Part shown: piece after piece, positions 15,886-50,833 of the stretch
Position numbering within the stretch: the first letter of the stretch is position 1
How the letters are laid out: the number at the start of each line of letters is the position of its first letter
From: Octopus vulgaris
Lineage: Eukaryota
Assembly (NCBI GenBank): GCA_951406725.2
Contig: OX597835.1
Coordinates: 20,212,001 to 20,276,000 of the forward strand
Length of the DNA: 64,000 nucleotides
Reading direction: 5' to 3'
Notes under the pieces: model-generated
The model's input: only the letters and a program-made list of their open reading frames with translations
What the model was told of the DNA's origin: nothing
The model's database searches: none
Position numbers and translations under genes: made by a program

Positions 15886-16122
15886 GTGTACACATGCAAA
15901 ACGAGAGAAAGCACTGAGTAGAGACTTTCTGACGATGAATACTTAAAGTATGAATATAAATATATTTATGTTAAGAGATGCAACTTACACAGAGCACAAG
16001 CGTTTTTCTTCTTTCTCTCTAATCTTCTCTGTTGAGTTATTTACTAATCTAATATTGTCTGTTTGTGTGCCAATAGATAGATTAGTAAGTATTTTGCCCG
16101 GATTGAGTATCCTCTTAATGTT

Positions 16123-16149
<27 letters not shown>

Positions 16150-16174
<25 letters not shown>

Positions 16175-16284
16175 CAACAATTGAGGGTAAAATTAATTAA
16201 TTATTAATTAATTTCACCAAGTGTTCAGTATGCAAAGGGACCATTAGTAAGTATTTTGCCCGGATTGAGTATCCTCTTAATGTT

Positions 16285-16332
<48 letters not shown>

Positions 16333-16769
16333 CAACAATTGAGGGTAAAATTAATTAATTATTAATTAATTTCACCAAGTGTTCAGTATGCAAAGGGACC
16401 ATTTAAGGCGAATTCAAATTATTACAATATATAAAAGGGCTTAGTAAAATAAATTACTTTGCCGCATACTGAACTCATTAGAAATAGCAGCTAAAAAACT
16501 TTTTTAAAAACCATTTCTAATACTTAAAGAAAATCTCTCTCGTATAGTGTTTGGTCAACTCAACTCACGAAAGTTTGGGGGTAAAGACATAAAAAAATCA
16601 AATGCAAAGGTTATTTGAGAACGTACGTTTCAAGATTAGTCATCAAGACACTTCTATCATCAGCTCAGAAACTCTTTAAGTATTAGAAATGGTTTTTAAA
16701 AAAGTTTTTTAGCTGCTATTTCTAATGAGTTCAGTATGCGGCAAAGTAATTTATTTTACTAAGCCCTTT

Positions 16770-16790
<21 letters not shown>
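16150..16790 (-). mobile_element. Penelope-like pLTR / retrozyme-type element with partial inverted duplication; diverged relative of the 24.4-26.4 kb unit
   Basis: Homologous to the array unit (caacaattgagggtaaaattaatt..); ~16430-16530 is inverted at ~16673-16774; flanked by (TA)n; 16081-16242 is duplicated at 16243-16400. Confidence 0.7.
16614..16669 (-). ncRNA. type-I hammerhead ribozyme
   Basis: tgag-CTGATGA-taga..tctt-GAAA-cgtacg-TT-ctca; palindromic stem III ACGTACGT; first stem II pair mismatched. Confidence 0.7.
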
Positions 16791-23922: not shown

Positions 23923-24385
23923 AATAACAAATAGTACATTAAAGGTATCATTTCCACCTAGCTAAGCGTCTCTACTAAGCCCGTCCACAGTGTTCCTTCT
24001 TAATTTCTCAAGCAATTGTAAAAAAAAAAATATGTGAAACACGGAAAGCCTCTTATGTGCGTTCTTATAAAGAAGGTTGGTTCTTTGCAGCTGTTTAAAT
24101 TGCTTTATATAGGAGGAATATATACTTGGAATCCAAACCTAATGATTCCGTACCTTAAACGATGATTAATACTAACGCTTCATTAAGTAACATCGCCCTC
24201 TATTTGAGGGTATTCATCTATAGGAGTGATTTATGCCAGATTTATGGGCGTTGCTGTTTCTTCTTTGATTAAACAGTAGAAATGTTACGCCTGAAAACAT
24301 GCGTGAACTTCGTTCATGGAATCTGTGTGTAAGTATCTATGAATACTTATGTGTATGCATGCATTTATGTATGTACATTTGTATG

Positions 24386-24420
<35 letters not shown>

Positions 24421-24696
24421 ACAATTGAGGGTAAAATTAATTAAATAATCAATTTCACCAAGTGTTCAGTATGTAAAAGGACCATTTAAGGCGAATTCAA
24501 AATATTACATTATATAATTAGGGCTTAGTAAAATAAATTACTTTGCCACATACTGAACTTAGTAGAAATAGCAGCCAAAAAAATTTTCTTAGCATTTCTA
24601 CTACTTAAAGAAAATTTCTCTCAGATAATGTTTACTCTAGACAGCTCACGAAGGTTTGGGGGTAAATACAGAAAAATATCACAAGTACATAGATCG

Positions 24697-24758
24697 TTTG
24701 AGTACGTCAACGTTTCAAGATTAGCCAAATAAATCAGCATTTCTTTCGTCAGCTCAAA
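24697..24758 (-). ncRNA. type-I hammerhead ribozyme (array unit 1)
   Basis: tttgag-CTGACGA-aaga..tctt-GAAA-cgttgacg-TA-ctcaaa: intact core, 6-bp stem I, 4-bp stem II, stem III ACGT-tg-ACGT, GUA cleavage triplet. Confidence 0.85.
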
Positions 24759-25263
24759 ATTTCTTAATTTGGATTTGGAAACACTAAAAAGAAGGAACTT
24801 TACCTATCAGCGAACTTGTCGCTTCAGATGAACCACTCCAACTAAACAGTGTCAACAAATTCAAAATGCGCAGGCGTAAAAATTCTGCACTCCCCATTCC
24901 ACCCACGTGGTCTATCTAGCAAACATTATATTTTAACCGCGAGAACCGAGGCAGTATGACCGAGAGTAATGAATTATAATATCAACAATTGAGGGTAAAA
25001 TTAATTAAATAATCAATTTCACCAAGTGTTCAGTATGTAAAAGGACCATTTAAGGCGAATTCAAAATATTACATTATATAATTAGGGCTTAGTAAAATAA
25101 ATTACTTTGCCACATACTGAACTTAGTAGAAATAGCAGCCAAAAAAAAAATTTTCTTAGCATTTCTACTACTTAAAGAAAATTTCTCTCAGATAATGTTT
25201 ACTCCAGACAGCTCACGAAGGTTTGGGGGTAAATACAGAAAAATATCACAAGTACATAGATCG

Positions 25264-25325
25264 TTTGAGTACGTCAACGTTTCAAGATTAGCCAAATAAA
25301 TCAGCATTTCTTTCGTCAGCTCAAA
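25264..25325 (-). ncRNA. type-I hammerhead ribozyme (array unit 2)
   Basis: Identical to 24697-24758. Confidence 0.85.
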
Positions 25326-25831
25326 ATTTCTTAATTTGGATTTGGAAACACTAAAAAGAAGGAACTTTACCTATCAGCGAACTTGTCGCTTCAGATGAAC
25401 CACTCCAACTAAACAGTGTCAACAAATTCAAAATGCGCAGGCGTAAAAATTCTGCACTCCCCATTCCACCCACGTGGTCTATCTAGCAAACATTATATTT
25501 TAACCGCGAGAACCGAGGCAGTATGACCGAGAGAAATGAATTATAATATCAACAATTGAGGGTAAAATTAATTAAATAATCAATTTCACCAAGTGTTCAG
25601 TATGTAAAAGGACCATTTAAGGCGAATTCAAAATATTACATTATATAATTAGGGCTTAGTAAAATAAATTACTTTGCCACATACTGAACTTAGTAGAAAT
25701 AGCAGCCAAAAAAAAAAATTTTCTTAGCATTTCTACTACTTAAAGAAAATTTCTCTCAGATAATGTTTACTCTAGACAGCTCACGAAGGTTTGGGGGTAA
25801 ATACAGAAAAATATCACAAGTACATAGATCG

Positions 25832-25893
25832 TTTGAGTACGTCAACGTTTCAAGATTAGCCAAATAAATCAGCATTTCTTTCGTCAGCTCAAA
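25832..25893 (-). ncRNA. type-I hammerhead ribozyme (array unit 3)
   Basis: Identical to 24697-24758; the unit 4 copy (26399-26437) lacks the CTGACGA half. Confidence 0.85.
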
Positions 25894-26434
25894 ATTTCTT
25901 AATTTGGATTTGGAAACACTAAAAGAAGGAACTTTACCTATCAGCGAACTTGTCGCTTCAGATGAACCACTCCAACTAAACAGTGTCAACAAATTCAAAA
26001 TGCGCAGGCGTAAAATTCTGCACTCCCCATTCCACCCACGTGGTCTATCTAGCGAACATTATATTTTAACTGCGAGAACCGAGGCAGTATGACCGAGAGA
26101 AATGAATTATAATATCAACAATTGAGGGTAAAATTAATTAAATAATCAATTTCACCAAGTGTTCAGTATGTAAAAGGACCATTTAAGGCGAATTCAAAAT
26201 ATTACATTATATAATTAGGGCTTAGTAAAATAAATTACTTTGCCACATACTGAACTTAGTAGAAATAGCAGCCAAAGAAAAAAAATTTTGTTAGCATTTC
26301 TACTACTTAAAGAAAATTTCTCTCAGATAATGTTTACTCTAGACGGCTCACGAAGGTTTGGGGGTAAATACAGAAAAATATCACAAGTACATAGATCGTT
26401 TGAGTACGTCAACGTTTCAAGATTAGCCAAATAA

Positions 26435-26482
<48 letters not shown>

Positions 26483-35147: not shown

Positions 35148-36884
35148 GAAAGAGCTATATTGGTACTTAGATTTATTGATGTATGTATATATTGTATCTA
35201 TATATACATATATTTATTTATGTATGTATACAGAACGACTTGTGCATGCAGATATAAATGTGTGTATGCGTATGTGTGCTTTCACAGCATCTAAATATTT
35301 CCGGCTATTTAAAACAAATTGAACGATATTCAGTTACTATGATCCGGAGAGCCAAAGCATACACAGATTTAAAGAAAAATACCTTTTTAATTAATAGTAT
35401 ATTATTATTTTATAATGTATGTTGACCTAAATGCAAAGACACCCAAATGAAATATATATATATACATACCTCGTTCAGAGATTTATTACATATATGTATA
35501 TATATATATATATATATAAAATGAGGGAGATAAATTGAGTATTAATTTAATTAATATCAATGTAAAACCAGTAGCCTAGCATACAAAAATCTTTAAAATC
35601 AGAGACAATTCTAATACATGTGTGTATTTAAAGGGCTAAAAACCACTCAAACTGTAGTTTGATCGTAGGTGATCTACTTCTAGCATATGGCTGTCCACAT
35701 ATTGGTTTTTAGCTCTTTAAATATACACACATATATATTCATATATATGTGTGTGTGTGTGTGTATGTGTGTGTGTGTGTGAGTGTGTGTGTGAGTATAT
35801 ATGTGTGCGTGTGTGTGTGTGTACGTGTGTGTGTAGAGTCTATTGGTTTTGTTTGAAAAATCAGTGAAAAGCTATATATTAACAAGACATTTTTGCTATT
35901 GTCATAAGGCCTGAAATTTGGCAGGAGTGGGCTATTCGATTTCATTGGCGTATTTAATCGAAACCGAAAGGATAAAATGCAATGTCAATCGCGAAAGAAT
36001 GAAAGGCAATGTCGACCCCGGCAGAATTTGAGCTCAGAACGTAGCGGCAGTCGAAATACCTATTTCTTTACTACCCACAAAGGGCTAAACACAGGGAGGA
36101 CAAACAAGTTCTTATTTCTTGCAGGTGGATGCTTGTTAAGCATCCTTACGTTTCATACGAATTTATAATTCATAGCTATTTAATGCTATATATCCTGTCT
36201 GTTTTCCTGGCATACTGTTTTTCTTTGTTACCTCGGTGTGGTACGGTGGATAAATTTAAGACTTTAGCTCTTATTTCTAGCAGGTGGATGCTTGTTAAGC
36301 ATCCTTACGCTTCGTACAATTTTATAATTCATAGCTATTTAATGCTATTGCGCCTGCGATCCACCTATGTCGCTGCTGGTGATATCATTAATTTTAAAAT
36401 TTATACACAGGTGATATGAACAGTAGTGACATCTGATTTCAAATCTTAGAGTTTGAATGTTTTGTATATATATATATATATACAAACGCACATACCCCCC
36501 CCCACACATATATATATATATGCATAAAAAATAGACAGAGTGATAGATAGATAGATAGATAGATAAACACCGACAGAAAGCTACATAGACGGACATATAT
36601 CAAAATATATATATATATATATACAGACAGAGAGAAGGATGGAAAGACATTTCAGAGTTTGAACTTGGTTTTGCCAAAAGTATAACATTTCATAAAAAGC
36701 AGGCTCATTTTTATTTATTGTGACATATTTCTTCACAGTATTTTTCAGAGTTAAGTAGACTGGACATAAGCAAAGACTAAAAACGAACTCAGTAATTCAC
36801 TGTCCTATAACGTGAGTAAACGTACTTCGATAATGGTCTACGTATTTACTTACGCGCAAACAGGCAGTGACATATATGTATATA

Positions 36885-43197: not shown

Positions 43198-43298
43198 TAA
43201 CGACACGTGTTTCGTGGCTATATTTAAGAAATGATTATAGTAAAAATAGTAGTAGTAGTAAAATCACTACAATATAAATATAGCCACTCATCAGGTTA
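43198..43298 (-). ncRNA. type-I hammerhead ribozyme with long stem II
   Basis: taac-CTGATGA-gtggctatattta..taaatatagccac-GAAA-cacgtg-TC-gtta; 13-bp stem II, palindromic stem III ACACGTGT, GUC triplet. Confidence 0.85.
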
Positions 43299-43658
43299 AA
43301 AATAACTACAATAATAAAATAATTAATTAATAACTATACGTAAATAATTCTTTATGAACAATCTACCATGAAGGCATCCAACTACAACTAACAGCCCATT
43401 ATTAATAAATCAACAACAGTTGTTATTGAATATAATAAAAATAACATGGTAAAAGTTTTTATTTTTCCTTTACTTCGAAAATTGCTATTAAATCGTGGTT
43501 TTGGCCGTGTTGGCTGCTATTTCTAGCATGTAAAAATTACCTCTTACAAGGTAGTTTTCTTTTGTGTTTGAGTACACTATTTTATAATATGGATATGTTG
43601 TCTATTGACTATTTAAACATGCTAGGCCACTGGTGGTGATATTTATAACGAATATTCG

Positions 43659-43714
<56 letters not shown>

Positions 43715-50657: not shown

Positions 50658-50781
50658 TAACGAATTTTTTAGAGATTTCTATCGGTTTGTTTCGAGACGC
50701 ATAAATTATAATGGTTATCGACAATTTATTGTTTCGGCATATTTGCCATTATAATTTTTCTTCTGCCCTTATCTTCTAAAT

Positions 50782-50833
<52 letters not shown>

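Follow-up and report, generated by a model that had tools for sequence, protein, structure and literature searches.

A covarying 3'-terminal RNA domain of Penelope-type retrozymes in Octopus vulgaris, with insertion 3' ends at two sites tied to its fold

The 64,000-nucleotide stretch of octopus DNA analysed here (the window) holds retrozymes of the Penelope-like element (PLE) type that carry a real, covarying 3'-terminal RNA domain, apparently undescribed so far. Its fold is shared by about 15 non-coding families of the genome, and the 3' ends of insertions map to two sites tied to it: site 1, just after the terminal hairpin P5, and site 2, between the hairpins P3 and P4. Because of these two sites, recognition by a reverse transcriptase (RT) is now the leading explanation of the domain. 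An RT-binding or template-positioning element had been among the suggestions of an earlier, sequence-only reading of this DNA, and what we infer is close to it: the fold probably serves as a recognition and dual-priming scaffold for a Penelope-type reverse transcriptase acting in trans, offering one A/U-rich site to each nicked (TA)n strand.

Two families, A and B, have the following parts in the window:

24419-26437, minus strand: family A retrozyme insertion, non-coding, about 3.6 units of 564-566 bp in tandem
24697-24758, minus strand: type I hammerhead of array unit 1, read from the sequence, with a predicted cut after GUA at 24703
24983-25176, 25550-25744 and 26116-26311, minus strand: three further domain copies in the family A array, found with the covariance model
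16330-16676, minus strand: main arm of a family B insertion, with hammerhead and domain (16333-16528), ending at site 1
16673-16780, plus strand: inverted arm of the same two-armed family B insertion, ending at site 2 beside (TA)n

BLAST within the window and a tandem-repeat scan showed the family A array to be bounded on both sides by (TA)n, and no relevant open reading frame was found in family A across 30 family loci. In unit 1, the predicted hammerhead cut lies ~154 nt upstream of the inner P2 pair. The copy at 16.3-16.8 kb, previously taken for a diverged relative of the array, does carry the domain; it belongs to a separate high-copy family, B, with a unit of 561 bp. Both families are dispersed and young, the best 40 places for each being 98-100% identical to the query, and a single pattern that mainly finds families A and B gave 4,165 matches in the genome, against none in a reversed control. 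Between the two families, conservation is highest over the 3' 160 nt (88-93%, compared with 38-83% over the rest of the unit). Family A sequence is present in public sequencing runs of four organisms, and contigs from presumed RNA runs (the run type was guessed) cover the family A unit, with strand, ends and editing not readable from them. Around the family B copy, a 158-bp direct duplication (window 16081-16403) encompasses the 3' end of family B along with the TA tract and adjacent DNA; the genome as a whole (2.8 Gb) is rich in microsatellites. By eye, a motif resembling a 5' splice site can be seen just upstream of the hammerhead (24790-24800, minus strand), with equivalents in families B, C, D and I, and D-type copies have a TATA-like box before it, as in the introns of Penelope pLTRs.

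The RNA-sense strand is the minus strand, which bears the type I hammerhead and folds better: over 24425-24610 it reaches -52.4 kcal/mol (z -6.9; none of 200 shuffles as good), compared with -39.3 (z -4.4) for the plus strand. The domain lies ~95-155 nt downstream of the hammerhead. P0 closes a three-way junction of P0, P1 and P2, P2 closes a multiloop containing P3, an A/U-rich linker and P4, and P5 follows P0. In array unit 1 the parts are:

24603-24606, minus strand: 5' strand of P0, partner at 24460-24463, closing the three-way junction
24561-24602, minus strand: P1 (helix 1 of the sequence-only reading), with a 3-nt bulge; its 3' strand bears the core GGCUGCUAUUU (24566-24576)
24464-24558, minus strand: P2 (helix 2 of that reading), 24548-24558 pairing with 24464-24474 and closing the multiloop
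24522-24547, minus strand: P3 hairpin, which folds, followed by CU and the A/U-rich linker; P3.3 covaries
24502-24507, minus strand: site 2, the internal insertion 3' end in the A/U linker between P3 and P4, a putative start of reverse transcription
24481-24492, minus strand: P4, a short hairpin; pair 1 is G-U, A-U, U-G, G-C or C-G, pair 2 is C-G or U-A
24430-24459, minus strand: P5, the terminal hairpin, which folds, begins with GG and is followed by CU and an A/U-rich run; included in the 18-row table
24415-24419, minus strand: site 1, the outer insertion 3' end, joined to (TA)n at 24382-24418

The two helices proposed earlier, each with a double change in the family B copy, held up: all eight strand segments were found in place and are exact reverse complements in pairs. 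The extent proposed with them, 24440-24605, falls short of the domain, the full structure taking in 24430-24606 with the long-range P0 and with P3, P4 and P5. Single-sequence folds give most of the topology in most families, though not in D3 or P2, and RNAalifold on a 12-sequence MAFFT alignment found P1, P2, P3, P4 and P5 but not P0. P0 measures 3-4 bp in A and B and mostly 4-8 bp in the other families; its double changes in I, J, K, N, O and Q fall at positions that the search patterns had left free. The lower part of P1 shows one-sided variation only and is lost in J and K, though the core GGCUGCUAUUU stays, whereas the upper part covaries. The core is conserved as sequence in 14 of 18 representatives, being absent from O, P and P2 and degenerate in the single N copy; it was fixed in several of the search patterns, so that its invariance is partly a matter of ascertainment.

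The compensatory substitutions that had first suggested a structured RNA are both real and, as evidence, thin, both lying at helix ends that the wider family does not conserve: families C, D, E, J, P and Q have a mismatch at the inner end of P2, and only A and B possess the outer extension of P1. Comparison of A with B alone gave covariation in none of the 25 core pairs. Because two families are insufficient to establish covariation, remoter ones were collected. GIY-YIG loci happened to contain families C and D; a pattern search (1,979 matches) yielded D1-D3, E and F, profile searches of flanking sequence yielded H, I and J, the core motif K and M, the covariance model N, O and P, and BLAST with those P2 and Q. 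N, Q and P2 are each represented by a decayed copy or two. When the genome was searched with C, H, I, J, K and P, each query returned 1,597-2,103 first-look candidates, which are not copy numbers. Wherever units could be recovered they are non-coding tandem repeats of ~450-600 bp (A 564-566, B 561, I 562, H ~600 and P 462 bp; K and J are tandem too). Wherever the upstream part survives, a type I hammerhead lies 5' of the domain: a descriptor matches it in A, C, D3, E/F, H, I, K, O and P, with one match in 1,500 shuffles, and inspection by eye shows it in B, D1, J and M; in the representatives of N, P2, Q and D2, which are truncated or single copies, it was not seen. The spacing from the hammerhead cut amounts to 142-155 nt in families A-I, compared with 93-109 nt in K, O and P. 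Judged by its tandem non-coding units and type I hammerhead, the host element can be assigned to the animal non-LTR retrozymes as a putative new member.

Two of the remoter families have copies in the window:

43491-43674, plus strand: remote family K copy with the complete fold and a site 1 end (covariance model, E 0.0025)
50684-50797, plus strand: remote family O arm without the core sequence, ending after P3 beside (TA)n (BLAST)

The TA-flanked site of the family K copy also contains, in head-to-head orientation to that copy, a different type I hammerhead element (43204-43300, minus strand) whose 3' end is of another kind, and a fragment resembling the family N domain (35542-35591, minus strand; E 0.022) comprises the 3' strands of P2 and P0 and the start of P5. 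A 16-nt form of the core motif has 7,347 matches in the genome and none in the control; about 22 of 30 sampled loci with this motif are an old, degenerate dispersed repeat that has the core and lacks P2-P5. In five D- and E-type loci, the hammerhead core has U3 with A8 or G8 in place of C3-G8, a type of variant that PMC4209133 describes from Schistosoma.

Covariation was scored over 18 representatives and 25 pairs, with anchors chosen partly by pairing score (those of D3, J, N, O and P2 were set by hand or by family-specific rules) and against a null that keeps the change pattern of each column and reassigns partners. Watson-Crick double changes occur in 17 of the 25 pairs (null mean 6.5, maximum 12; 0 of 5,000), and 95% of all cells are canonical. 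P0 and P2 together show double changes in 11 of 12 pairs, compared with 4.6 under the null, and the 11 closest rows alone still give 5 against 1.1 expected (7 of 5,000). Pairing is strictest in P2.2-P2.8, where all 126 cells are canonical, eight being G-U and none A-C, and six of the seven pairs have double changes. On the hammerhead-sense strand the table holds 27 G-U and 9 A-C cells, a count that is not independent, as the rows are related. Positions invariant over all rows are mostly paired G-C. A structure-blind MAFFT alignment of 12 sequences gave 8 of 42 pairs against 3.7 (0 of 500 shuffles, a control that relatedness alone can pass), while slid partners gave 1-5; P3.3 covaries in both this alignment and the 18-row table. 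The proposal of a conserved cis-acting RNA domain is thus borne out by covariation in a larger set of families and in two alignments. The domain also matches no known Rfam family, as had been suspected: Rfam covariance models (ribozymes, IRES, telomerase RNA and SECIS among them) gave no match in the window at the gathering threshold, and only weak sub-threshold matches at relaxed E-values. Viral contigs held no match to a 22-nt motif, and all 34 pattern matches in metagenome contigs lacked the fold on inspection.

Several other identities were considered for the domain and dropped. A coding reading of the A sequence gives a short hydrophobic peptide, in a part where families differ by 1- and 2-nt indels and by stops. 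The P1 bulge has what we take to be a likeness to a loop of dicistrovirus intergenic IRESs, but the element has no open reading frame, no pseudoknot and no Rfam match. Supposed likenesses to the twister, pistol, HDV and hairpin ribozymes found no support in the strand order.

The 3' ends of insertions were mapped at 240 loci of eight families, with DNA queries that selected for complete site-1 arms and left the second arm unselected, and with overlapping loci by which some insertions may be counted twice. On this basis, 198 terminal 3' ends lie at site 1 and 132 at site 2, in each case beside TA repeats; a further 12 ends at site 2 and 18 past P5 have no adjoining TA, and a single one of the 361 terminal ends falls between the two sites. 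Another 69 copies run on into the next unit. Among 102 insertions with multiple ends, 100 consist of exactly two opposite arms, and these opposite-strand pairs combine site 1 with site 2 in 97 cases, site 2 with itself in two and site 1 with itself in one; the family B copy in the window has the one-of-each pattern. A tail is present on one arm only in 97 of the 100 two-arm insertions, its length between the sites being 83-120 nt. Both sites have the same make-up, namely a hairpin that is usually closed by G-C, then mostly CU, then an A/U run that merges into the target. Arms of the site 2 type end at or near unit position 481, the exact base being blurred by TA microhomology.

Other traits of PLE insertions are present as well: 5' truncation, partial tandems and an inverted 5' arm. 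The 5' ends are scattered in the four families counted (53 ends in A, 63 in B, 41 in P and 39 in K, with the K unit taken as 492 bp; H and I were left out), with at most four at any base and no cluster in the domain. Nor do they gather at the hammerhead, the ends within 3 nt of its cut numbering 1 of 53 in A, 1 of 63 in B, 2 of 41 in P and 0 of 39 in K. This scatter suggests that copying runs through the hammerhead cut site, as expected for a circular template or an uncut multimer.

How far these data could be explained without an RT-recognition function depends on what the fold is taken to be kept for. It might serve the handling of the RNA (circle stability, ligation, hammerhead folding or localisation), with the mapped ends being simply the only accessible TA-like spots for a primer. 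Extensive self-pairing is indeed predicted for retrozyme circles (PMC7229834), the A/U-rich sequence of both sites merges into the TA target, and within groups A-I and K, O and P the distance from the hammerhead cut varies little. However, passive priming leaves the 97 of 100 one-of-each arm pairs unexplained, and the A/U-rich loop of P5 would have been expected to collect more than the one end in 361 seen between the sites; we therefore regard this account as unlikely. A signal at the level of DNA, in which the tail region would be recognised by an endonuclease or host factor, either as DNA or in the form of a cDNA hairpin, has a precedent in PMC11167929, which cites a requirement of the Penelope endonuclease for tail sequence in recognising and cutting plasmid DNA, and lower P1 is conserved as sequence with one-sided changes only. 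Against it, G-U outnumbers A-C on the RNA-sense strand by 27 to 9 and by 8 to 0 in the P2 core, P0 spans ~140 nt, and the plus strand folds worse, which makes such a signal very unlikely.

The sequence-only reading had also offered a second catalytic RNA, and a cleaving or ligating activity would suit a multi-junction fold whose bulged core is kept by 14 of 18 representatives, in a class of elements known for ribozymes. That proposal fares badly, and we give it hardly any weight: the 5' ends do not cluster in the domain (the same proxy is negative for the hammerhead itself), the unpaired core is missing from O, P and P2 and degenerate in N, the invariant positions are mostly paired G-C, and no Rfam ribozyme matches a domain that already has a hammerhead upstream. 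Most improbable, in our judgement, is that the covariation arose as a by-product of template switching between inverted repeats, with no selection on an RNA fold. Inverted junctions are frequent, and A and B alone gave two changes at helix ends; yet correction against a template would produce perfect complements and not persistent G-U pairs, and the topology is kept across families too remote for one DNA search or sequence pattern. Both covariation tests largely refute this origin.

Under the leading explanation, recognition of the fold by an RT, the helices P0-P5 with their covariation, the two fixed ends and the pairing of arms would be linked as follows. A hammerhead-released circle or an uncut multimer would take up the fold in cells, and an autonomous Penelope-like protein, possibly as a dimer, would bind the folded retrozyme RNA. 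Its endonuclease would nick both strands of a (TA)n target, each 3'-OH would anneal to one of the two sites by TA microhomology and be extended towards the RNA 5' end, and the two cDNAs would finally be joined head to head. On this view, the retrozyme group would have a long version of the Penelope 'tail', formed by the 83-120 nt that separate the sites. More specifically, the domain might be a two-half-site scaffold for a dimeric Penelope RT-endonuclease, with each half-site (hairpin, CU and A/U run) loading one protomer, a refinement that we put forward only tentatively. If that refinement is true, a single RNA would allow simultaneous priming of the two target strands, each at its own fixed point, and the PLE enzymes, which are related to telomerase, would have in the domain their first defined RNA for RT binding and template boundary. 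The domain bears on how the RT of a PLE chooses its RNA and why one arm has a tail; the one in vitro study found mapped two starts and, in the text consulted, names an AC-rich stem-loop as the only RNA determinant. Natural variation in about 15 parasite families supplies a covariation-backed fold bearing both putative starts, from which precise tests with compensatory mutants can be designed. It would also tie retrozymes to PLE enzymes by mechanism, beyond phylogeny, and give a structural point of comparison for telomerase RNA.

PLE searches of the genome found no protein-coding element that bears the fold. With PLE protein fragments as queries, tblastn gave no match adjoining the domain as part of one element; at two loci (L040 and L185) domain copies are inserted into the TA tract that ends other PLEs, and the 3' ends of the GIY-YIG families inspected are without the domain. 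Homology of the pLTR to an autonomous PLE was likewise not found in one Pfam GIY-YIG search, which covered 55 stretches around 150 matches and GIY-YIG only. GIY-YIG families are abundant in the genome, with many open frames of 781 aa. One very young PLE family (C16:20835500-20841000) has many such frames, with RT, a CxxxxC motif and GIY-YIG, and a long open region upstream; its pLTR contains CCAAT/CRE-like repeats together with a TATA box and a 5' splice site, and the 3' end of this family is without the domain. A 3.2-kb gap between two J copies, considered as an autonomous partner, proved to consist of nested other elements. More generally, copies of different families often sit in the TA tracts that end each other and autonomous PLEs, forming nested clusters at seven loci.

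Structured 3' RNAs proposed to recruit an RT for target-primed reverse transcription are known from the R2 3' UTR and from the 3' stem-loops of LINEs and SINEs; non-autonomous parasites keep such LINE-type recognition structures, which have one start at the RNA 3' end. The domain resembles them in being a structured 3' RNA with a proposed role in RT recruitment and differs in bracketing two internal starts, and it has no sequence or Rfam match to them. Telomerase RNA has RT-binding junctions (CR4/5) and a template boundary (TBE), with a three-way junction near a short internal template. Here the likeness is one of analogy only, as there is no Rfam telomerase match, no repeat template and no sequence likeness to be seen; the PLE RT itself is related to TERT (PMC8557442).

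Closer relatives are the metazoan non-LTR retrozymes (Cervera and de la Pena 2020; Li, Clavereau and Pollet 2026), with which the elements share non-coding tandem units and a type I hammerhead, and for which low GC and a proposed mobilisation by PLEs have been described (PMC7229834; bioRxiv 10.64898/2026.07.22.740005); the class comparison also drew on PMC4209133. These two retrozyme papers present minimum-energy folds of single circles and pLTR similarity, and the text consulted reports no conserved non-catalytic domain, covariation or mapped starts.

The two-end signature is already known from Penelope elements, whose tail of 30-40 bp (PMC8557442, Craig et al. 2021) is optional on one of the inverted pLTRs (PMC3846280, Arkhipova et al. 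2013). An already described PLE terminal structure was the match that could have undone the novelty of the domain; the pattern of ends does correspond to this tail, while the consulted text of PMC3846280 and PMC11167929 describes no such fold. The same is true of the PLE and retrozyme literature seen, of which the supplements and figures (e.g. Fig. S2C of PMC11167929) may hold related structures. [quoted passage not shown] 2024). Like PLEs, the octopus elements insert into AT-rich or microsatellite DNA and show 5' truncation as well as inverted junctions, together with two 3' ends, here downstream of a hammerhead, and a tail on one of two inverted arms. Unlike the PLE tail, theirs is ~83-120 nt long. 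In contrast to Poseidon, moreover, the two sites lie not in an ORF stem-loop but in non-coding A/U linkers of a covarying five-helix fold, and, whereas the Poseidon start site did not appear to differ between strands in vitro (PMC11167929), the octopus insertions follow a strict one-of-each pattern of arms.
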